From Gekko japonicus (taxonomy: Eukaryota): a stretch of 59,902 nt of DNA. This document shows positions 3,174 through 59,306 of the stretch, in pieces. Positions within the stretch are counted from its first letter, which is position 1. Each line of letters opens with the position of its first letter. Where the stretch lies: the NCBI RefSeq assembly GCF_001447785.1, contig NW_015165371.1, positions 24,135-84,036 of the forward strand, in the 5' to 3' direction. A model generated the notes under the pieces. The model worked only from the letters and a program-made list of their open reading frames with translations, was not told the DNA's origin and did no database searches. The position numbers and the translations under genes were made by a program.

Positions 3174-4109
3174 TTAGTCCCTACTGATAAACATTCGTCT
3201 CAATATTTTCCATGCTGCTTCTTTGAAGTCTTTGTTTCGGATGGTGTAGATGAAAGGGTTTAACATGGGGATGAAACTCGTACGCACAAGAGACACTACT
3301 TTGTTGGCTCGCGTATCTCCTTGGGTTGAAGGCCTCAAGTACATAAACATGTCTGCTAGATAAAAGATGATAACAACAGTAAGATGGGAGGTACATGTGA
3401 AAAAGGCTTTGGATCGGCCAGTGGCAGAAGAGATCCCTATGACTGTGGCTATGATGCATGTGTATGAAATCAACGAAAAGCCAAATGAACCCCACATTAT
3501 AGTAGCACCATATAAGAGACCAATCAGCTCCATCAAAGTTGTGTCAGCACAAGCCAATTTCAGGACAGGTCCAACATCACAGAAGAAGTGATCAATTACA
3601 TTCCGTCCACAGTATGGGTAACTCCATACAACTGCAGACTGTGAAATAATTATCACAAACCCTCCAACCCAAGCTAACAAGGCCAAATAGAGGCATAGTT
3701 CACTGGTCATGATGGCACTATAGAGCAAAGGTTTGCAAATGGCCACATAGCGGTCAAAAGACATGATGGTGAGGGTGATGAATTCAACAGCCCCCATTGT
3801 AAAGACAACAAAACCTTGTGCCATGCAACATGCAAAGCAGATGGTGGTCTTTCCAGACAGTACATTGTCAAGCATCTTGGGAACCTCTGCTGTTGTGGAA
3901 CAGATCTCGGCCATGGAGAAGTTGACGAGGAAGAAGTACATTGGAGTATGGAGCATGGGTTCTTTGAGGACAACTATGATAATCATGCTGTGTCCTGTAA
4001 GTGACAGAAGATACATCAACAGAAATATGGTGAAAAATGTTCCATTCAGGCCATGAAGTTCAGGAAATCCCAGAAGAATGAACTCCGTGACTGATGTGCC
4101 ATTGGCCAT
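3174..4109 (-). CDS. Olfactory receptor, OR6 family (OR6X1-like), divergent; 311 aa (OR-1)
   Basis: Motifs LHTPMYFFL, MSFDRYVAICKPL, DHFFCD, KAFFTCTSHL, PMLNPFIYTIRNK; N-glycosylation site NGT; polypyrimidine tract and AG acceptor ~19 nt upstream of the ATG. Confidence 0.95.
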   Translation of the reverse strand: MANGTSVTEFILLGFPELHGLNGTFFTIFLLMYLLSLTGHSMIIIVVLKEPMLHTPMYFFLVNFSMAEICSTTAEVPKMLDNVLSGKTTICFACCMAQGFVVFTMGAVEFITLTIMSFDRYVAICKPLLYSAIMTSELCLYLALLAWVGGFVIIISQSAVVWSYPYCGRNVIDHFFCDVGPVLKLACADTTLMELIGLLYGATIMWGSFGFSLISYTCIIATVIGISSATGRSKAFFTCTSHLTVVIIFYLADMFMYLRPSTQGDTRANKVVSLVRTSFIPMLNPFIYTIRNKDFKEAAWKILRRMFISRD

Positions 4110-4332
4110 CTCTTAACTTTCTTCTTTTCTTAAACAGAAGAAAAAGTATGTGTCAATAAAACTGCTCATGAGAAGCATGTTCGAATGTACAAACCTCAAA
4201 TAGAATAGTGATAAAACTGTGACAATTGTGGCAGATCTTTACATATGCTTCTATAAAAGTTCCCCAAATATCTAAAACTAAGTCTGTCACGGTCCCCGGG
4301 GCTGTGGGATGCTTGTCGGTCGGAAGCTGTCA

Positions 4333-4722
4333 CTTCCAGGACATGACCTATCAGTAGCAGTTCTTTTACAAAGGAATTTCAAAAGGAGATTAGAAAGAGA
4401 GACTGCTGAATTGCCACTGATAATGAAACTCAAGACAATACACCCACCTGTACTAAATTGAGACTGAAGTTTCTTGTCTCATTACCAATGCTGATTTCTC
4501 CTCATCCACTACCCCTCTGCATATCAAACCTAATCCAAACATGCCTACTGTTTTTATTCACTTGCTATTGACATCTGAAATCTCTCCACTTTCCAATAGA
4601 TTGGACAGATGGAGTCACATTCTAGCTGTATCTGAAGAAGTGAGCAGTGACTCATGAGAACTCATATGCTGCCACAAATGTTGTTAGTCTTTAAGGGGCT
4701 ACTGGACTCTTGCTCTTTTTAT
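4333..4722 (+). mobile_element. Penelope-like element 3' fragment (GIY-YIG C-terminus plus pseudo-LTR)
   Basis: Translates LPGHDLSVAVLLQRNFKRRLERETAELPLIMKLKTI...SHY, resembling the C-terminus of reptile Penelope endonuclease. Followed by a degenerate hammerhead (4628-4667) and a ttagtctttaagg..ctactggactc tail. Confidence 0.7.
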
Positions 4723-4957: not shown

Positions 4958-5300
4958 GCCCTTCATTACCCATAGGTGTCTCAGAGCGGCTTACAAACTC
5001 CTTTCCCTCCCCCTCCCCACAACAGACATCCTGTGAGGTAAAAGAAGAAGAAGAGATTGGATTTACACCCCGCCCTTCACTCCCCAAAGGTGTCTCAGAG
5101 TGGCTTACAAACTCCTTCCCCTTTCCCTCCCCACAAAAGACACCCTGTGAGGTAGGTGGGGCTGAGAGAGCTCTTGACAGAAACTGCTCTTTTTCAAGAA
5201 CAGCTCTTGCCAGAGCTACGGCTTGCCCAAGGTCATCCAGCCAGGTGCAAGTGGAGGAGGTTAGAATCTGCGCACTTAACCACTACACCAAACTGGCTCT
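4958..5300 (-). mobile_element. tRNA-derived SINE (Squam3-like): a partial copy next to the gap plus a near-full copy at 5043-5300
   Basis: Head agagccagtttggtgtagtggttaag on the minus strand, L2-like 3' end, (TCT)n tail. Confidence 0.8.
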
Positions 5301-5653
5301 TTATCTTACCCCTGTGAAGTGGGATTTTTTTTCCCTGCATGAGATCATTGGCACCTCTGCAGTAGGCATCTGTATTGCATGCAATAGTAAAGCCAATTTT
5401 ATTGTTATTTCTTACCCAAATGTCAGCTTTGCTTCTCAGCTAAACCAGAATTAAGGGGAGGATTGTTAATTTGAGGATAAACAGACAAAGTATTTAGAAA
5501 AAAATGTGTGTATGTGCTGAATGGTAAACAATCACATATGGTTGAATTCTATGGAACTTTCTCATTAATACGTTGTCGAAGGCTTTCACGGCTGGAGTTC
5601 ATTAGTTGTTGTAGATTTTCTGTGCTGTATGGCTGTGGTCTTGGCATTGTCGG

Positions 5654-5696
5654 ACCTGACGTTTCGCCAGCGGCTGTGACTGGCATCCTCAGAGGT
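5654..5696 (-). ncRNA. Minimal type I hammerhead ribozyme, minus-strand copy
   Basis: Exact reverse complement of 5776-5818. Confidence 0.85.
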
Positions 5697-5775
5697 ATAA
5701 CACAGAAAGATGGAGTACTCTCTGTGTCTGGGTTGCAAATCTTGACACAGAGAGCCCTCCCTCTTTCTGTGTTAT

Positions 5776-5818
5776 ACCTCTGAGGATGCCAGTCACAGCC
5801 GCTGGCGAAACGTCAGGT
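5776..5818 (+). ncRNA. Minimal type I hammerhead ribozyme, plus-strand copy
   Basis: ACCT-CTGAGGA-T-GCCAG(tcacagccg)CTGGC-GAAA-C-GTC-AGGT: complete core, 5-bp stem II, 4-bp stem I, loopless palindromic stem III (ACGT); predicted cleavage after C5814. Confidence 0.85.
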
Positions 5819-6803
5819 CCTACAATGCCAAGACCACAGCCAGACAACCCAAAAAATTTACAACTTCTCATTAACGATGGTGTTTTTCTCTGGCCCAAAG
5901 ACAATTTGTTGGTGCACCTGGATTGGAGGAAAACATTGCTGCTTGTGAAAATGATCCATAAGATCTAGCTCATACAAACAGAGGACGTAGGAAGGATCCC
6001 TTAAATATTATATAACCATTCCATAACCATGAAATGAAATGCTTGTCATCTCTACAAATCTCACAAAAATCCCATCCTGACGAAGTAATTACAGAAGTAA
6101 TTACAGAATTTCTTTCCAGTCAGTCTTGAATCGTCATCAGCATCATCTTCATGATCAGCTCCATAGCCCCCTAACTAGACCATACTTGGCCTCCTGAGGA
6201 ATATAAGGAATATGAAAAATGGGAAAGATTCATTCTTTCTGATAGGATTTCAAAAATGGATTTCGCTGATGACCAATGATTTCTCACTGCCCCAGCTCTG
6301 AATATCAGGTTAACCCTCCCTGCATTGGTCCAGGGTTGTTGAGAAACTCCTTATAATAATGCAAGGTATTATGAACATTCACAAAACCAAAAAAAAAAAT
6401 TCTGTGTCAAGGAGAGAGAAAGAGACAAAAGAAAACCCTATGCAATTTAATCCACACTTGTCCCCACAGCAGGGAGGGCGGGCTAATGTTCAGACAAGTA
6501 AAAAAGGGAAAGAAAGAATGTAGCAGATAGGGAACACTGTTGGTAGCCTCCCCATATCCAGTTTTGACTTTAAGGTGCCACTGGAGTCAAGTTTTGCTCT
6601 TGTACTGTGCGACTGATGTGGCTGCCCATTTCAAAACTTCTTGTACACAACATGACTAGATATCTAACAAGTCATCTGACAGTGGGAATGTGTGTGCCTC
6701 TTAGATGGACAACCAGCCATTGTCTTAATCACGAAAATGAGCTTACCTGTTAATGAAATGCCCAGTCTGACATATTGTGGTGCTGATCCCTCTCTCTCTC
6801 TCT

Positions 6804-7132
6804 GGCCCAATCTGCATCTAGCATTTGCTCCGCTGTGTTACCAAACCCACGCTGGAACAGAAATTCCTTTCTGCATTGCACGCCACTTTACTTTGATTGA
6901 TTGTCGGATTTTACGGCAACGTCCAAACTGCATGCCACTTTCACTTTGTTGGTCTCTCAGTTTTACGGTAGCGTCTGCATAGATTTATGGCCATTTTATG
7001 GTCATTCAGGGGTGACTTTGCCTTCAGTATGCTGTTGGCCAAGGGAATTTGAATGTGGCTCTGAGACATCTTTTTCTGTTCCAGTGTGGGTTTGATAAAA
7101 CAGCGGAGCAAATGCTAGATGCAGATTGGGCC
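6804..7132. mobile_element. MITE with long TIRs (PIF/Harbinger-like)
   Basis: About 55-bp TIR ggcccaatctgcatctagcatttgctccgctg... / ...cagcggagcaaatgctagatgcagattgggcc; related copy at 12605-12915. Confidence 0.75.
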
Positions 7133-7204
7133 TCACTAAAATTCACCAAGAAGAGTTCCAAGTCCTTAGTCCAGATCTCTCTCTCAGTCTTTAAGACAGA
7201 GCCC

Positions 7205-7850
7205 TGCACTGCTTTATATAAGGTTGAGGAGATGTCATTATAAACATGGCTGTTACCATCACACAATCTTAATCATTCAGCTAAGGAAATGTGCTGTTCA
7301 TCAATGCAAGATAGTCAGAAAAAGTCATACCTTCTTAGCAGCTTTGAAATAAATTCTGGAGATAATACTAACTTGCAAAGGTCCTAGATATTAATTCCCT
7401 TCTGTTTCAATCTGCCCCCCCCCTTTTCATTACCATATGTTTATTGCCATCCACTTAAGGGCTTCTCTGAGGAATTCCTCATAAGATCTTGTCGCTCTCC
7501 CTAAGCCATTAAAGAAAACAAACATTGAGCCACCCCCTCAACAGCTAACTTGACTAGTTCTTTATACTACACTAGGAAATGTTTCTTGATGCATTTGTAA
7601 TCAGATCCAGGATACCTGAAATAACTGCTTATTAACTTCATTGGTCATATGTAAATGCTTAATTCAATGGGGGAAAAATAATGTGTGCTACTATGTACTG
7701 GACTATTCCCACTTTTGTGTGAGTTTTTTTGCTGTCCATCAGAGCAGGTCACACAATAATAAAATTGTGGCCTCAAACTTATTTGAGATTTTTAATGCTT
7801 TCCCTCAATCGTGTGCTGTGCATTGAATCTAGAGTTCATAATCTCAGCCA
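7205..7850 (-). promoter_or_regulatory. Putative promoter and first non-coding exon of OR-1
   Basis: Paralogous to 860-1500; O/E-like ttctctgaggaa and ttcctcataaga; donor AG|GTATGA at 7331/7330; ~3.2 kb upstream of the OR-1 ATG. Confidence 0.55.
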
Positions 7851-11043: not shown

Positions 11044-11216
11044 CCTTAGGACTTGAGTAGAGGGTGAAAAAACTAGTAAGCCAACAGGATCCAAAAAAGC
11101 TAGCATATGAAAACCTTCTGTGAGACTTCAGTCGTACTGTCAGACATGAGGAAGCATGGATACTTTGCATGACCATGTCCAGGGGATTTCAGTATCACAA
11201 TCAGCCCTGTGAATGT

Positions 11217-12604: not shown

Positions 12605-12915
12605 GGGTGATGCTGCATCTAGCGTTCGCTCCACATTTCCTCAACTGGGAGGGAAAGGTGCAGCTCAAAACCACATTCAAATACCTCAGGGCAACACCGT
12701 ACTGACTGCAAAGTCACCCCGAACTGCCATAACTCTATGCAGAAGGTACCATAAAACCCCATGATCAAAGAAAGCAAAAGCGGCATGCAGTGTGGAGGGT
12801 ACCATAAAATCCGACGATCAAAGGAAGTGAAAACAGCATGCAATGCAGAGAGGAACTTCTGTTCCAAGGTGGGTTTTGTAAAGCCACGGAGGGACAAGTC
12901 AATGCAGAATCGCCC
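12605..12915. mobile_element. Harbinger-like MITE of the 6804-7132 family
   Basis: Degenerate TIRs gggtgatgctgcat / atgcagaatcgccc; 3-bp TSD ACA; internal similarity to the first copy in inverted orientation. Confidence 0.65.
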
Positions 12916-17489: not shown

Positions 17490-17827
17490 GGCATAACTCA
17501 TCTGGAAATAAAGCTAGAAGCCTCAAACTTAGCCATTGGTTTCAGTATGGTAATGGGAGTTGTAGAGCTGAAAATGAAGGGGATTTGGAGCATCCTGGCA
17601 TAGATTATCTCCCAAACATCCACATGATATTTAGAATGGATGCAAACACTTACTCATGAGAAGCCAGCAAGGCCAGGCAGCTCAGAGGCTGTGTGGTGTC
17701 ATGGTTAGACCACTGAATTAGGATCAAGGAGATCTAGGACTGAATCCTCACGCTGCCATGGAAGGTAAATGGCTGCCTTTGAGGCAGTAACACCTCATAG
17801 CTAAGCTGACTTCGTAAGAAGGTTGAG

Positions 17828-18016
17828 GGGCTGTGGCTCACTGGCAGAGCATCTGCTTGGCATGCAGATGGCCCCAGGCTCAATCCCCAGTCTAGGTAGG
17901 AGGCAATGTGAAGGACCTCAGCCTGAGACCTTGGAGAGCTGCTGCCAGTCTAAGTAGACACTATTGACTATGATGGACCAAGGGGCTGATTCAGTATCAG
18001 GCAGCTTCATGTGTTC
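17828..18016 (+). mobile_element. tRNA-derived SINE (Squam2 / Anolis SINE2-like) nested in an older MIR-like SINE
   Basis: Head ggggctgtggctca..ggcagagcatctgcttggcatgcag; tail gtagac...gatggacc...cagtat.aggcagcttc. Confidence 0.6.
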
Positions 18017-34796: not shown

Positions 34797-36200
34797 AGAA
34801 CATAAGAACATAAGAGATGCCAATGTTGGATCAGGCCAAAGGCCCATCCAGTCCAACACTCTGTCACACAGTGGTCAGAAATACCAGTGCCATCAGGAGG
34901 TCCAGCAGTGGGGCCAGGACATTAGAAGCCATCCCACTGTTAACCCCCCCCCCAAGCACCAAGATGACAGAGCATCACTCGCCCCAGAGTCCCTATCTAT
35001 NNNNNNNNNNNNNTTATCCGTTCTAACCCGACCGCTCAGCAATTTCATGGAGTGCCCACAAGTTCTTGTATTGTGAGAAAGGGAGAAAAGTATCTCTTTC
35101 TCTACCTGCTCTTTCCCATGCATAATCTTATAAACCTCAATCATGCTACCCCTCAGTCGTCGTTTCTCCAAGCTAAAGAGTCCTAACATATTTTTGTCAG
35201 GAGATCCACAAGTTCACAATTGAGTTCTTTCAGAACTCTTGGATGTATGCCATCTGGGCCTGGTGATTTATCAGTTTTTAAGTTGTTTATCAGTTTTAGG
35301 ACCTCCTCTCTCGTCACCTCAATCTGACTCAGGTCTTTCAACACCCCTCCTGAAATCAGTGGTTCTGGAGTGGGCAAGCACTTCTCATCTTCCACAGTGA
35401 AGACGGAGGCAAAAAATGCATTTAGCTTCTCAGCCATTTCCCTATCATCCTTCAATACTCCTTTTACCCCTTGGTCGTCCAAGGGCCCCACTGCCTCCCT
35501 GGCTGGTTTCCTGTTTCTAATGTATTTGAAGAAAGTTTTATTGTTGGTTTTTACGTTTTTTGCTATATGCTCCTCATATTCCCTTTTTGCATGCCTGACC
35601 ACAGACTTGCATTTTATTTGCCATAGCCTGTGTTCCGTTTTATCAGCCTCACTGTGACTAGCTTTCCACCGCTTAAAGGAATCCTTTTTACCTTTTACAG
35701 CTTCCATTACTTTGTTAACCATGTAGGCTTTTTCTTATACCGGTTTGTGCCTTTCCTAACCTGCGGAATATATTTTCTTTGAGCTTCTAGAATTGTAGTT
35801 TTAAATAGTTTCCAAGCTTCCCCAATGGTTTTGACCCTTTCTACTTTTCCCTTCAGTTTCCTCCCCACATGTCCCCTCATATCAGAAAAATTACCCCTTT
35901 TAAAGTTAAAAGTGGTTGTGTGAGTCTTTTTGGCCAATTCCCTATTTGTACAAATGTTGAACTCAACAACATTATGATCACTGTTCCCAAGCGGTGCAAT
36001 CACTTTTACATCTCTCACCAGGTCTTGAGTGTTACTTAGGGCCAAATCAAGGATCACCTCTCCCCTGGTAGGTTCCATGACCATCTGCTCCATAGCACAG
36101 TCATTTAGAGTGTCTAGAAACTCAATCTCTTTCTCTCGACTAGAACACATATTGACCCAATCAATGTGTGGGTAGTTAAAATCACCTATTACGACACAGT
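34797..36200 (-). mobile_element. CR1 LINE, 5'-truncated, with an internal deletion of most of RT
   Basis: GDFNYPHIDW and GNSDHN (APE endonuclease), KSPGPDGIHPRVLKEL, then a jump at ~35187 to the C-terminal LGLFSLEKRRLRG; (TTATGTTC)n tail. Confidence 0.92.
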
Positions 36201-36451
36201 GTTTTTGTCTAGGAAGGGGCTCTTTAGATATCAAGAAAGTCTGTGTTCTGTGCCAATTTGGTGCCATTATCTTCATAAAGAGTTGCCGCAGACCCTCATA
36301 CATATATATAATGTCCTACCTATGAATAAACAATCATGGTAACCCTGAGCTCCAACCTTGATATGAAATTATAACTTTTTTTCTTAGCACACAACCATGG
36401 TGTCTAGCTAATCTCATAGAGTGATGGGAACCATTAAGGTTCCTTGGTGAA

Positions 36452-36818: not shown

Positions 36819-37787
36819 CTACTTACCAGCCACCCTCCATAAGAATATTTTCTCTTTGAGGGGTCCTCCTGTTTTATGGACAGCCCTCCAGAAGGCTTGC
36901 TTTACTTCTACGTTCCTTATGGTATAAATGAAAGGGTTCAGCATGGGGGCCAGGACCATGTTCAAGACTCCTACTGCCTTGTTGAATTGAAAGGAAGAGT
37001 GCACATTGGGCCGAACATACATAAAAGCTATGGCTCCGTACAGAATTGAAACCACCGTCAAATGAGATGTGCAAGTGGAAAATGCTTTCTTGCGCCCACT
37101 CGCTGATGGGATACGTAAAATGGTAGAGATGATGTAAACGTAGGACACCACAATGAGGAAAAGAGTGATGACCACAATGGAGATGGCTGACAGCAAGGCC
37201 AGGAATTCTAGCAAACGAGTGTCAGCACAGGACAAACTCAACACTGGCCCAAGGTCACAGAAATAATGGTCTAGTACATTTTTTTCACAGAATGGCAGAG
37301 TCCATATCATGACGGCTTGGAAGAAATTATATAGAAACCCTCCTAGCCAGCACCCCATGGCCAACTGGATGCAGACATTTTTGGTCATGATGACTGCATA
37401 GTGAAATGGTTTACATATGGCAATGTAGCGGTCGAAGGCCATTATTGTCAGGAGGAAGAGTTGAATGGCGCCAAAGGAGAAAACGAAAAAAATCTGAGCC
37501 ATGCAGCAATGGTAACAAATGGTGGTCCTCGTACTGAGAAATGTCTCCAATAATTTAGGAATTACTACGCTGGTGTAACAGATCTCTAGAAATGCCAGGT
37601 TGCACAAGAATCCATACATGGGTGTTTGGAGTTTTCGGTCAATCATAACAATAATGAGGATGAATCCATTTCCCAGCATGCTTAGGCTGTACATCATCAG
37701 AACCACGGAGAAACAGAGGATGTTCAAGTTGTAAAACAAAGGGAAGCCCAAAAGGACAAATTCAGTAACTGCTGAGATATTCGTCAT
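36819..37787 (-). CDS. Olfactory receptor, OR6 family; 322 aa (OR-5)
   Basis: LQTPMYGFLCNL, MAFDRYIAICKP, KAFSTCTSHL, PMLNPFIYTIRN. Confidence 0.95.
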   Translation of the reverse strand: MTNISAVTEFVLLGFPLFYNLNILCFSVVLMMYSLSMLGNGFILIIVMIDRKLQTPMYGFLCNLAFLEICYTSVVIPKLLETFLSTRTTICYHCCMAQIFFVFSFGAIQLFLLTIMAFDRYIAICKPFHYAVIMTKNVCIQLAMGCWLGGFLYNFFQAVMIWTLPFCEKNVLDHYFCDLGPVLSLSCADTRLLEFLALLSAISIVVITLFLIVVSYVYIISTILRIPSASGRKKAFSTCTSHLTVVSILYGAIAFMYVRPNVHSSFQFNKAVGVLNMVLAPMLNPFIYTIRNVEVKQAFWRAVHKTGGPLKEKIFLWRVAGK

Positions 37788-38886: not shown

Positions 38887-40417
38887 ATTTATTTATTTAT
38901 TTATTTATTATTTTAGTTTATACCCCGCCCTCCCCGCAAGCAGGCTCAGGGCGGCTTACATTAATTGGTACCCTGTATCATAAAACCATGTACAAAATTT
39001 AAACAACTTACAACAACAACAACAACATTAAAAGCAATCCAACATCCAACAATTAAGAATTAAAGTGCTAGTGATGGTACTCTTTGATGGTAATCATTGC
39101 ATGATTCAGATGGCGTACTAACGATTTTATCGGCATCGATGATCTTCAGCTTGGTGCGATAATATAACGCAAACCCTCCCCGGGGGCCAGAGCCAACCCA
39201 AAGCCACGGATGTTGGTGGTGGTGGAGGAGCTTTTAATGTCACGCCTTACGTGACCTGTAACCAGTGTTCCCTCTAAGCTGAGTTCGTGTGAGCTAGCTC
39301 ACAATTTTTTAGCCTCCAGCACACACATTGTTGTCTTAGCTCAGGAAGGATGACTCCAGAGCAAACTGATTTATGCAGTAGAAGAAGAAGAAGAGGTTGG
39401 ATTTATACCACGCCCTTCACTACCCAAAGGAGTCTCAGAGCGGTNNNNNNNNNNNNNNNNNNNNNNNNNNNNNNNNNNNNNNNNNNNNNNNNNNNNNNNN
39501 NNNNNNNNNNNNNNNNNNNNNNNNNNNNNNNNNNNNNNNNCCAGCCTGGCCGTGGCATTCTGCACTAGCTGCAGTCTCCGGATTTGCAACAAGGCCAGCC
39601 CCATGTAGAGAGCGTTACAGTAGTCTAATCATGTGGTAACTATCACATGGATCACTGTAGCCAGGTCGTCACAGCCAAGGAAGGGAGCCAACTGCTGAAT
39701 CAGCCAAAGATTGTAAAAGGCCGACTTTGCAGTGGCTGCTACCTGGGCCTCCATTGTTAAGGAGGTATCCAGAAGCACTCCCAAACTCCTATCCTCTGGC
39801 GCTGGCACCAATGATGTCCCACCGAAGGTCAGGAGCGGGAATCCCACCTCTGAATCGCTCCGACTCAGGCACAGGACCTCCATCTTCGCCAGATTCAGTT
39901 TCAGCCGGCTCAGTCTGAGCCAACCAGTCACAGCTTGCAAAGCCCAGTCCAGATCTTCTGGTCTGGAGTCCGACTGGCCGTCCAACATCAGATAGAGCTG
40001 GGTATCATCAGCATACTGATGACAACCCAGCCCATGTCTCCGGGCAACCTGGGCAAGGGGGCGCATATAGATGTTAAATAACATCGGGGACAGCACTGCC
40101 CCTTGAGGCATGCCACATTCCAGTGGGTGTCTCCTGGACTGCTGTTCCCCTAGTGCCACCCTTTGTCCCCGACCCTGGAGAAAGGAAGCAAGCCATTGCA
40201 GGGCCAGTCCCTGGATTCCCATGCTGTCAAGGCGGTGGGTCAGCAGCTGATGGTCGACCGTGTCAAACGTGGCTGACAGATCTAACAACAGCAATACTGC
40301 CACATTTCCTTAATCCAGATGCCTCTGGAGGTCATCCGTCAGAGTGACCAGCACCGTCTCCGTCCCGTGTCCCAGGCGGAAACCGGACTGGAAGGGATCT
40401 AATACGGAAGCGTCATC
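38887..40417 (-). mobile_element. L2-clade LINE with a nested hAT MITE piece (from 39263), a SINE piece and a gap
   Basis: RT motifs LLDLSATFDTVDH, GMPQGAVLSPMLFNIYM, QYADDTQLY at 39629-40303; 3' hairpin and (TAAA)n tail at 38887-38960. Confidence 0.85.
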
Positions 40418-42056: not shown

Positions 42057-42367
42057 AGACTGAAGAAGTGAGCAGTGACTTAACGAAAACACCTACCCTG
42101 CCACAAATTTTGCTTGCCTTAAAGGTGCTCCTGGACTCTTGCTCTTTTCTACTGTTACACTAAACTGGTAACAGTGCATACAAAGAAACAACAAATAACC
42201 ACTGTGATGGTTGACACTATCAATTCGAGGAGATGTTGAATGATCCTGTACTAGTACTCAGATTTCCGAAACTGAAAGCAGAAAAAAATGCTATGCTTTT
42301 TTTTTCTTTTTCAAATTTTGGAAATCTAAGTACTAGTACAGGATCATTCAACATCTCCTCATTGATA
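42057..42367. mobile_element. Penelope pseudo-LTR relic plus a ~150-bp hairpin
   Basis: ctgaagaagtgagcagtgac..cgaaa motif as at 4632; inverted repeat at 42219-42367; related rearranged pieces at 50870-51205. Confidence 0.6.
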
Positions 42368-49278: not shown

Positions 49279-50247
49279 CTACTTACCAGCCACCCTCCGT
49301 AAAAATATTTTCTCTTTGAGGGGTCCTCCTGTTTTATGGACAGCCCTCCAGAAGGCTTGCTTTACTTCTACGTTCCTTATGGTATAAATGAAAGGGTTCA
49401 GCATGGGGGCCAGGACTGTGTTCAAAACTGCTACCACCTTGCTGAATTGAAAGGAAGAGTGAACATTCGGCCGAATATACAGAAAAGCAATGGCTCCATA
49501 CAAAATTGAAACCACCGTCAAATGAGATGTGCAAGTGGAAAATGCTTTCTTGCGCCCAATCGCTGATGGGATATGCAAAATGGTAGAGATGATGTAAACA
49601 TAGGACACCACAATGAGGAAAAGAGTGATGACCACAAAGGAGATGGCTGACAGCAAGCTCAGGAATTCTAGCAAGTGAGTGTCAGCACAAGACAAACTCA
49701 ACACTGGTCCAAGGTCACAGAAATAATGGTCTAGAACATTTTTTTCACAGAATGGCAGAGTCCACACCAAGACAGCTTGGAAGAAATTATATAGAAATCC
49801 TCCCACCCAGCACCCCACGGCCAACTGAATGCAGACATTTTTGGTCATGATGACTGTGTAGCGAAGTGGCTTACATATGGCAATGTAGCGGTCGAAGGCC
49901 ATTATCGTCAGGAGGAAGAGTTGAATGGCACCAAAGGAGAAGATGAAAAAAATCTGAGCCATGCAGCAACGGTAACAAATGGTGGTCCTCCTACTAGTGA
50001 ATGTCTCCAATAATTTAGGGATCACAATGCTGGTGTAACAGATCTCTAGAAATGCCAGGTTGCACAAGAAGCCATACATGGGTGTTTGGAGTTTCTGGTC
50101 AATCATAACAATAATAAGGATGAATCCATTTCCAAACATGCTTAGGCTGTACATCACCAGAACCACGAAGAAACAGAGGATGTTAGTATTGTAAAACAAA
50201 GGGAAGCCCAAAAGGACAAATTCAGTAACTACTGAGGTATTTGTCAT
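49279..50247 (-). CDS. Olfactory receptor, OR6 family; 322 aa (OR-6)
   Basis: Close paralog of OR-5 and OR-7, all OR motifs intact; NTS sequon. Confidence 0.95.
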   Translation of the reverse strand: MTNTSVVTEFVLLGFPLFYNTNILCFFVVLVMYSLSMFGNGFILIIVMIDQKLQTPMYGFLCNLAFLEICYTSIVIPKLLETFTSRRTTICYRCCMAQIFFIFSFGAIQLFLLTIMAFDRYIAICKPLRYTVIMTKNVCIQLAVGCWVGGFLYNFFQAVLVWTLPFCEKNVLDHYFCDLGPVLSLSCADTHLLEFLSLLSAISFVVITLFLIVVSYVYIISTILHIPSAIGRKKAFSTCTSHLTVVSILYGAIAFLYIRPNVHSSFQFSKVVAVLNTVLAPMLNPFIYTIRNVEVKQAFWRAVHKTGGPLKEKIFLRRVAGK

Positions 50248-52520
50248 AACTATAAATGGACAAGACTACCTTCGGGTATCAGAATGTGTAGGAGAACTTC
50301 CAAGATGACCGTCATATAAAACATTCAGCCAACTGCCTTAAGCCGCAGATTCAGCATATGGTTTCTGTAAGCACAATAAAATAAATAATATTATTAAACA
50401 GACAAGGATGGAAAAAAGTAGAATAGGTTCAATTTGCATAAGTAACAAAAAAATCATACCAATGATATGAGGCTCAAATAAATTAAAAATACCTCTTTTG
50501 GATCGTCCTGATAGTAGGTTTGCCCTGCTAGTGTTTCTTGTGTAGCTATGGAGGATAATCCCTTTGCATCTATTGATCTAGATGAAAAGAATTAAAGACA
50601 CCTGTTTCTTATAAAAAAAATAAGGCAAGATCATCTGGAACTCTAAAATCCTGTGAGAAATTGAGAGGATGAGAAGCACCCATACCGAAGTATCAACCTC
50701 TCCCCCAATAAAACAGCAAAACAAACAAGCAGACAACTACAGACTGTAATTTATTTAAAAATCTGGCACAAATTCTTACAATAAAAATAATAATTAACAG
50801 ATGTATTGGATTGTAAACCTTTCTCACCTTTCTCACTGAAACCAGAAGTGGATTACACAGTATAAACTCATGAAGATGCGTAGCCGTGTTAGTCTGCCTG
50901 TAGCAGCAGAAGAATATGTTATGCTTTTTTCAAATTTTGGAAATCTGAATACTATTACATGCTCATTCATCGTTTTCTTATATTAATAGTGTCAACCATC
51001 ACAGTCTTTATTAAATGTCTCTCCCTCTGGGCTATCATCAGTTTATATTGTAGCAGCAGAAAAGCGTAAAAGTTCATACCCTTCCACAAATTGTGTCCGT
51101 CTTTAAGGGGCTATTAGACTCTTACACCTTTTTGTTTGTTCCATGTGTTGAATGACCCTGTACTAGTACTTGGATTTCCAAAATTTGAAAAAAAGCATAA
51201 CATATTAGGCATGATGTAGTATCATGCCTAATATGCTTTGTTTTTTTCCGGCTCATCTGTTTTTGTGGCTTTCTGCAAATCCCGTTTAAAGGTACTGTGG
51301 TAATTAATTTCATACTCTCCAATTTCTTTTTCTAAGCTACAATGATAGCTTTTAATATAGAATGATGGCTAATTTCAATAAATGCAAAAAATAGATATCC
51401 GTTAACCAGAAGTTCCTCATCTTTCAAAATAATGCGGAGGGATGCAATTTTCTAACTGATGGAACATATTACAAATGGTACCCAATGAGGTACTAGCTCA
51501 CAGCAGGGTTCTGTTGCTGCACTGACAACAAGACAAGTTGTATCCTTCTATGCCCAGTTACTTGGACACTGTTTCTATTGAGTTCAGTGGAGTATGTCAT
51601 TCTCCAGAATATTTTTAGAATAAAAAACGACTACCAGGCAACCATGCTGGAGCCACACATTTGATCATGATGCATAGCATCTTACAAAATTCAATGTAAA
51701 TTAGTTCATTGTCTACTTACTTTGCAACTTATGACATGGACACAGTATTTAAAATGCACTTTCATCTCACTTACCTGAGATAGAAAGGTAGGTGGCAGAC
51801 ACAAACAGATGGTTTGCCATAGTTTGTCTGGCATAGCAATCATGATATTCCTTGGTGGTGTCCCATCCATGTACTAACAAGGAACAACCCTGCTTAGCTC
51901 CCAAGATCTGATGCGACTGGGCTAGCGTGGGCCATCCACATCAGGGCAGTAGGCCAATAGATAAGGACAATGAATGGTAGGTACCAACATCTGTGTACTT
52001 GGCATATGTTTTCAAAACCACTTCTGATGAAATGAAGCAACTATGGCTTCCTTTTTGATGGTACATCCAAGCACGTGCCACTATTTCCCAAAATAATGTC
52101 TCCTGAGAAAAGTTCCCCTAGACTTGTTAAGAACATTAATTAAGCCTTGAAAAATATTTTTTTAAAGTTCTGTTCTCCTAGCGACTAAACCCTCTGCAGT
52201 TTGGATCAGAATTGTGTCTCTTTGTTTAGTTATAACAAAATTGGGCATTAATACACAAAGAGTGGAATATCAGACTGTGTATTCCACTGAAAGATACCTG
52301 AATCCCTCAAGGAGTAGAAGATCAAGAGAACAGTGCTTATGTTCACCAAAAATGGTGGTGAGTGCTAATCTGGAGGTTCTTTTCCTTGGGGATTTTCCTT
52401 GTGTCTGTCATTTTTCTCCCTCGTATAAGAAATACCTGTGCTGAAATATGAAATATTTTACTGTATTCTCATATTGTGATCCTTAAGGTGGATATGTGCT
52501 TTATGTGAATTTATGCAAAA

Positions 52521-58337: not shown

Positions 58338-59306
58338 CTACTTACCAGCCACCCTCCCCAAGGATATTTTTTCTTTGAGGGGTCCTCCTGTTCTATGGAC
58401 AGCCCTCCAGAAGGCTTGCTTTACTTCTACATTCCTTATGGTATAAATGAAAGGGTTCAGCATGGGGGCCAGGACCGTGTTCAAGACTGCTACCGCCTTG
58501 CTGAAGTGAAAGGAAGAGTGCACATTCGGCCGAATATACATAAAAGCAATGGCTCCGTACAGAATTGAAACCACTGTCAAATGAGATGTGCAAGTGGAAA
58601 ATGCTTTCTTGCGCCCACTCGCTGACGGGATACGCAAAATGGTAGAGATGATGTAAACGTAGGACACCACAATGAGGAAAAGAGTGATGACCACAATGGA
58701 GATGGCCGACAGCAAGCCCAGGAATTCAAGCAAACGAGAGTCAGCACAGGACAAACTCAACACTGGCCCAAGGTCACAGAAATAATGGTCTAGAACATTT
58801 TTTCCACAGAATGGCAGAGTCCATACCAAGACAGCTTGGAAGAAAATATATAGAAATCCTCCCAGCCAGCATCCCACGGCCAACTGGATGCAGACATTTT
58901 TGGTCATGATGACTGTGTAGCGAAGTGGCTTACATATGGCAATGTAGCGGTCGAAGGCCATTATCGTCAGGAGGAAGAGTTGAATGGTGCCAAAGGAGAA
59001 GATGAAAAAAATCTGAGCCATGCAGCAACGGTAACAAATGGTGGTCCTCATACTGATAAAAGTCTCCAATAATTTAGGTATTACAATGCTGGTGTAACAG
59101 ATCTCTAGAAAGGCCAGGTTGCACAAGAATCCATACATGGGTGTTTGGAGTTTCTGGTTAATCATAACAATAATGAGGATGAATCCATTTCCCAGCATGC
59201 TTAGGCTGTACATCATCAGAACCACGGAGAAACAGAGGATGTTCAAGTTGTAAAGCAAAGGGAAGCCCAAAAGGACAAATTCAGTAACTGCTGAGATATT
59301 CGTCAT
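58338..59306 (-). CDS. Olfactory receptor, OR6 family; 322 aa (OR-7)
   Basis: Close paralog of OR-5 and OR-6, all OR motifs intact; NIS sequon. Confidence 0.95.
   Translation of the reverse strand: MTNISAVTEFVLLGFPLLYNLNILCFSVVLMMYSLSMLGNGFILIIVMINQKLQTPMYGFLCNLAFLEICYTSIVIPKLLETFISMRTTICYRCCMAQIFFIFSFGTIQLFLLTIMAFDRYIAICKPLRYTVIMTKNVCIQLAVGCWLGGFLYIFFQAVLVWTLPFCGKNVLDHYFCDLGPVLSLSCADSRLLEFLGLLSAISIVVITLFLIVVSYVYIISTILRIPSASGRKKAFSTCTSHLTVVSILYGAIAFMYIRPNVHSSFHFSKAVAVLNTVLAPMLNPFIYTIRNVEVKQAFWRAVHRTGGPLKEKISLGRVAGK

Follow-up and report, generated by a model that had tools for sequence, protein, structure and literature searches.

A 296-bp inverted insertion with two minimal hammerhead motifs, very probably of Penelope-like origin, beside an olfactory receptor gene of Gekko japonicus

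Olfactory receptor genes and repeats of the window

The window, that is the whole stretch of 59,902 nt of Gekko japonicus DNA analysed here, contains seven intact olfactory receptor (OR)-like coding sequences (CDSs), all on the minus strand; two of the seven were checked in Pfam, and both matched PF13853. Between an intact OR CDS and a putative OR promoter and first-exon block lies a 296-bp foldback unit (5569-5864). The features of this region are given below, with positions relative to the start codon signed + or - and with PAc denoting Poseidon_Ac of Anolis carolinensis.

3174-4109, minus strand: intact OR CDS, 1.46 kb downstream of the unit, with a candidate acceptor AG near 4129 (PF13853, E=3e-49)
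5559-5568, no strand: left TSD copy, 10 bp, AT-rich (repeat search of the window and chance estimate)
5569-5607, minus strand: Penelope-type "tail", 39 nt, +80 to +118 from the ATG, on the minus arm only (unpaired in the hairpin; end compared with PAc)
5570-5686, minus strand: presumed parent ORF, first 39 codons, its ATG placed where stem II begins (ORF list; same position as in PAc)
5608-5728, minus strand: left arm, 5'-truncated pLTR end, -42 to +79 from the ATG (arm alignment)
5654-5696, minus strand: minimal type-I hammerhead with a 4-bp stem I, CUGAGGA, bulged U, stem II of 5-6 bp and GAAA-CG-UC; predicted cut after C5658 (own descriptor)
5729-5743, no strand: junction where the arms meet head to head; imperfectly self-complementary and including TTGCAA, a palindrome, at 5733-5738 (sequence inspection)
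5744-5864, plus strand: right arm, inverted 5'-truncated pLTR end, -42 to +79, without tail (arm alignment)
5776-5818, plus strand: second minimal hammerhead, same sequence as the first; predicted cut after C5814 (own descriptor)
5865-5874, no strand: right TSD copy (repeat search of the window)
7180-7850, minus strand: putative OR promoter and first-exon block, GT donor at 7330 (65-70% like the paralogous block 834-1514)

Two parts of the putative promoter block, 7180-7489 and 7573-7850, resemble 834-1157 and 1253-1514 at 65-70%, both blocks being non-coding, on the minus strand and upstream of OR genes. The donor context at 7330 is kept 15/15 in the paralogous block, and with this conservation of the putative donor the position proposed in the initial annotation, within the 5'UTR intron of an OR gene, stands as probable. 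Three further CDSs at 36819-37787, 49279-50247 and 58338-59306 (minus strand) are very similar to each other and near-identical in the 60 nt upstream, suggesting recent tandem duplication.

Several other repeats occupy the window. An abundant interspersed repeat, which we take to be SINE-like, spans 4958-5303, where an internal 83-nt duplication adjoins an assembly gap, and has copies near 11206, 13996, 16124, 24404, 26885 and 41386 that are 78-95% identical. At 6804-7132, a 329-bp element with 60-bp terminal inverted repeats (95% complementary) looks more MITE-like than the 296-bp unit; its interior is 74% like 12664-12881, and no clear TSD was found. The sole match in the window at an Rfam gathering score is a tRNA-like sequence without T arm at 17827-17876 (plus strand), probably a SINE head or pseudogene, and ORF fragments at 35183-36303 and 39629-40222 (minus strand) resemble pieces of a LINE endonuclease or reverse transcriptase (RT). 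A second, older repeat family carries a decayed minimal-hammerhead-like motif at 4632-4719 (plus strand), with a CTGAAGA box, a 5-bp stem II and GAGA replacing GAAA, and has relatives at 42060-42148, 51074-51132 and 6563-6588. This family is probably another Penelope-like one, and its motif at 4632-4719 resembles a turtle hammerhead motif in the available part of the PMC4209133 supplement. Because the interval holds several repeats including the decayed motif at 4632, Penelope-type debris seems commonplace here.

Architecture of the foldback unit and its hammerhead motifs

The foldback described in the initial annotation (296 bp, arms of ~120 bp, a loop of ~15 nt, a 10-bp TSD) was recovered with arms of 121 nt each (5608-5728 versus 5744-5864), which differ at 9/121 positions around a 15-nt apex. 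The 10-bp TSD that flanks 5569-5864 on both sides, TTCTCATTAA, occupies 5559-5568 and 5865-5874 and has no further occurrence on either strand of the window; allowing ±5 nt of freedom at both ends (121 end choices), its chance probability is ~1e-4. The duplication is short and lies at an AT-rich site. The full hairpin has a minimum free energy (MFE) of -220.7 kcal/mol, and none of 200 shuffles was equally stable. Both arms are directed away from the junction, as in a head-to-head inverted pLTR pair. The unit is asymmetric, since 39 nt (5569-5607) lie within the TSDs and outside the inverted repeat, forming a tail of the 30-40-nt class at one end only; from the ATG to the element end, the minus arm measures +118 and the plus arm +79, a difference of 39 nt. 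Both element ends terminate in or beside ACAAC.

Each arm contains one hammerhead motif. The identity of the two 43-nt motifs, as originally reported, was confirmed, and they lie within a longer perfect run of 59 nt (5762-5820). A self-made descriptor of minimal type-I hammerheads, modelled on the available text of PMC4209133, matched exactly these two sites in the 59,902-nt window; in 100 dinucleotide shuffles it averaged 0.02 sites, with a maximum of one. By this descriptor, the minimal hammerhead lies within the pLTR and overlaps the ORF start. The Rfam search proposed in the initial annotation did not recover the motifs: the window gave no match to a hammerhead family at gathering score, and 5400-6000 gave none at E<=10. 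The 12 Rfam matches obtained for 5400-6000 were all below gathering, chiefly to generic miRNA-hairpin models, and were rejected. In bacterial and archaeal genomes, the hammerhead pattern had 0 matches.

In the available part of PMC4209133, the minimal hammerheads of metazoan Penelope-like elements (PLEs) show a short helix I, a long helix II in which a 5' base is bulged and a palindromic 15.2-16.2 pair, and dual opposite-strand copies 100-700 bp apart in Schistosoma were already reported there as truncated PLEs. The gecko motifs share the helix features, the palindromic pair and the dual opposite-strand arrangement. Their description as minimal hammerheads of Penelope type, built around a palindromic ACGU core and forming an inverted pLTR pair, is supported.

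The unit had also been called ORF-less, which does not hold, as the start of an ORF is present in each arm. An ATG stands at the start of hammerhead stem II at 5686 (minus) and 5786 (plus), placing the predicted cut at +29 from the ATG in either arm; on the minus arm the frame stays open for 39 codons up to the element end, and the plus arm carries the first 26. These 39 codons are all that is present of an ORF, with neither RT nor GIY-YIG endonuclease (EN). The peptide of 39-42 aa found no relative in protein databases or Pfam, which is weak evidence given the very short query. On the basis of its position and of a by-eye DNA match to PAc, we presume that it is the start of the parent Penelope ORF.

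The differences between the arms were compared in post hoc tests. Five of the mismatches cluster within 16 nt (+58 to +73; P=0.007 when the near-junction mismatches are taken as native, otherwise 0.055), and the longest perfect run of 59 nt has P=0.018. Transitions make up 4/9 mismatches (P 0.14), and the three CpGs common to both arms are all intact, with 0/6 sites differing (P 0.009-0.15 depending on the assumed CpG rate). The CpG observed/expected ratio is 0.55 in the element versus 0.28 in the window and, together with the intact shared CpGs, suggests a young insertion. The arm differences themselves suggest, in tests that are post hoc and modest, an origin before the insertion; such older differences are compatible with two distinct RNAs as templates and also with a hairpin master that already existed, and a single-template snap-back followed by neutral decay does not predict non-random mismatches. 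The identity of the two hammerheads is explained by the youth of the copy and family-level conservation; local selection acting on the ribozymes is not needed and was rejected as an explanation.

Self-cleavage versus a double-stranded hairpin

The hammerhead core and its catalytic residues are intact in both copies. Each strand has one sense ribozyme, and the antisense arm is always transcribed ahead of it. In folding calculations, constraining the RNA to the hammerhead fold carries a penalty of 82.9 kcal/mol for the full unit versus 5.5 and 6.4 kcal/mol for the single arms, and the ribozyme is thus predicted to be fully suppressed within the hairpin. When two copies of the 43-mer were cofolded, the MFE structure was a non-catalytic dimer, a result that carries no information. 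In vitro, according to the available text of PMC4209133, a single minimal motif showed no cleavage and dimers had low activity; unlike those dimers, the gecko unit has no tandem partner, so even the low-activity cis dimer cannot form. The PAc hammerhead is described in the available part of PMC11167929 as cleaving only with protein and as dispensable for in vitro insertion. Because the antisense arm comes first, the fold penalty is large and a same-strand dimer partner is missing, cleavage from this locus appears improbable. The initial annotation had foreseen that dsRNA would compete with self-cleavage, and the folding predictions agree, with the hairpin ahead of the ribozyme fold by ~83 kcal/mol. 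If the OR pre-mRNA is transcribed through the unit, a long dsRNA hairpin is the most likely product.

Co-option as a regulator of the OR gene, with receptor expression tuned by self-cleavage or by dsRNA within the 5'UTR intron, would draw on the location between the conserved putative first exon with its donor (7330) and an intact OR CDS, and on the intact catalytic residues. We regard it as very unlikely: on both strands the antisense arm precedes the ribozyme, at the predicted 83 kcal/mol penalty, no such element lies upstream of the other six OR CDSs in the window, and the same intron bears other repeats, including the decayed hammerhead of the second family. Most likely, the insertion is neutral intronic DNA.

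Relation to Penelope insertions and proposed origin

The following comparisons draw on the available parts of the cited sources. Typical Penelope insertions comprise a head-to-head inverted pLTR, a tail on one end, the first codons inside the pLTR, an 8-10-bp TSD and junction palindromes (PMC3846280, PMC8557442). The gecko unit resembles Pen2/Pen2a_Av (PMC3846280) and the general scheme (PMC8557442) in its inverted pLTRs, one-end 30-40-nt tail, TSD, junction palindrome and codons within the pLTR. Unlike in Pen2/Pen2a_Av, both gecko copies are truncated to 120-170 nt, and therefore the whole insert is one hairpin.

A closer match is PAc, whose ORF begins at stem II with cleavage 26 nt past the start codon, whose reverse transcription begins 111-118 nt into the ORF and whose 30-40-nt tail is located between two RT start sites; its targets are AT-rich (ATT), and both strands are nicked and extended (PMC11167929). 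In line with this, the gecko unit has its hammerhead at the pLTR-ORF junction, the ATG at stem II, the cut at +29, an end at +118 and an AT-rich target. The tailed end at +118 falls within the PAc RT-start window, and the +79 end is tied to PAc through the tail length alone. Aligned by eye with the PAc RNA letters given in Fig. S1 of PMC11167929, +54 to +115 is gap-free with 45/62 identical positions (~73%, not computed), including a 17-nt identical run at +99 to +115, and +30 to +53 is colinear with a poor match (9/24, about 40%, by eye). In contrast to PAc, the gecko unit consists of two short inverted ends without RT or EN, and it represents a distinct family rather than PAc itself. The PAc template RNA must cover the ORF's first 172 nt (PMC11167929), and the gecko unit, again unlike PAc, is devoid of the segment from +119 to +172. 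For a copy without RT, a Penelope/Poseidon clade assignment of the parent would draw on this landmark match and the by-eye similarity to PAc.

Like the non-LTR retrozymes (bioRxiv 10.64898/2026.07.22.740005), the unit is non-coding, PLE-derived and equipped with a type-I hammerhead. However, in the available part of that source non-LTR retrozymes are tandem units arranged head to tail, and the gecko unit is a head-to-head inversion; identity with a retrozyme was rejected, as same-strand tandem units are absent and each strand has one hammerhead.

A Penelope origin of the 296-bp unit is very probable, and we consider it likely that the unit is a fairly young, dead-end, 5'-truncated inverted insertion from an EN-bearing Poseidon-type PLE. 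The enzymatic steps that we infer from PAc would produce the geometry and coordinates that were observed directly, as was their match to the published landmarks. The GIY-YIG endonuclease of the parent would nick both strands of an AT-rich target with a stagger of ~10 nt, and the RT would copy element RNA from internal starts at ~+118 (tailed end) and +79 (untailed end). Both copies would break off 42-49 nt upstream of the ATG, and the two would be fused in head-to-head orientation through a short palindrome (the apex with TTGCAA), giving the 296-bp foldback between TSDs. The second arm may stem from other-strand priming, possibly from a second RNA, which is slightly favoured, or from snap-back self-priming. 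The hammerheads would be in the insert owing to their place at the pLTR-ORF junction, within the portion copied first. The copy would be a dead end because it is without RT and EN and without +119 to +172, and because the one sense ribozyme on each strand is preceded by antisense.

The initial annotation had instead proposed a mobile ribozyme MITE, a reading that is not supported, given the 39-nt asymmetric tail, the ORF codons and the lack of a second copy in the window. Terminal inverted repeats do not reach both ends, leaving the 39-nt overhang, and blastn of the unit returned the self-match only, with 0 other copies in the 59.9-kb window, a weak test. A cut-and-paste DNA transposon with long terminal inverted repeats that captured Penelope sequence would likewise be small and foldback with a 10-bp TSD, within the 9-11 bp of Mutator-like elements; it is hardly credible, being largely refuted by the asymmetry, since 39 nt separate the inverted repeat from the left end, and both ends lie on Penelope RT-start landmarks, in or beside ACAAC. 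Mobility as a MITE is further unsupported by the end of the unit at +118, with the PAc enzyme needing template RNA to +172 (available part of PMC11167929).

The same missing segment (+119 to +172) speaks against a non-autonomous Poseidon-derived hairpin family that Penelope RT and EN would copy whole in trans. Such a family would fit arm differences that seem to predate the insertion (intact CpGs, transitions 4/9, clustered mismatches), and there are precedents for its parts: pLTRs can suffice in trans, having alone mobilised a host gene in a rotifer (PMC3846280), and non-autonomous PLEs exist (PMC3846280, PMC8557442). It is nevertheless unlikely, as everything up to +79 is predicted by folding to be locked in duplex, ordinary insertion already yields every feature, and 0 more copies were present in 59.9 kb (a weak test). 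No paper describing a Penelope-derived family of foldback units was found in the literature searched. If true, the hairpin family would be a Penelope-driven element distinct from tandem retrozymes, with fixed arm differences and two intact hammerheads.

The 296-bp unit is a fresh example of an already-known insertion class, neither MITE nor retrozyme. As a single locus it carries little weight, being the expected footprint of a known class of retrotransposon. The step at which Penelope inverted repeats originate is called unresolved in the available parts of PMC8557442 and PMC11167929. If the ends at +118 and +79 and the clustered, CpG-sparing arm differences prove general, comparison of the arms over many copies would test, with genome sequence as the sole input, priming on two strands from two RNAs against self-priming from one.
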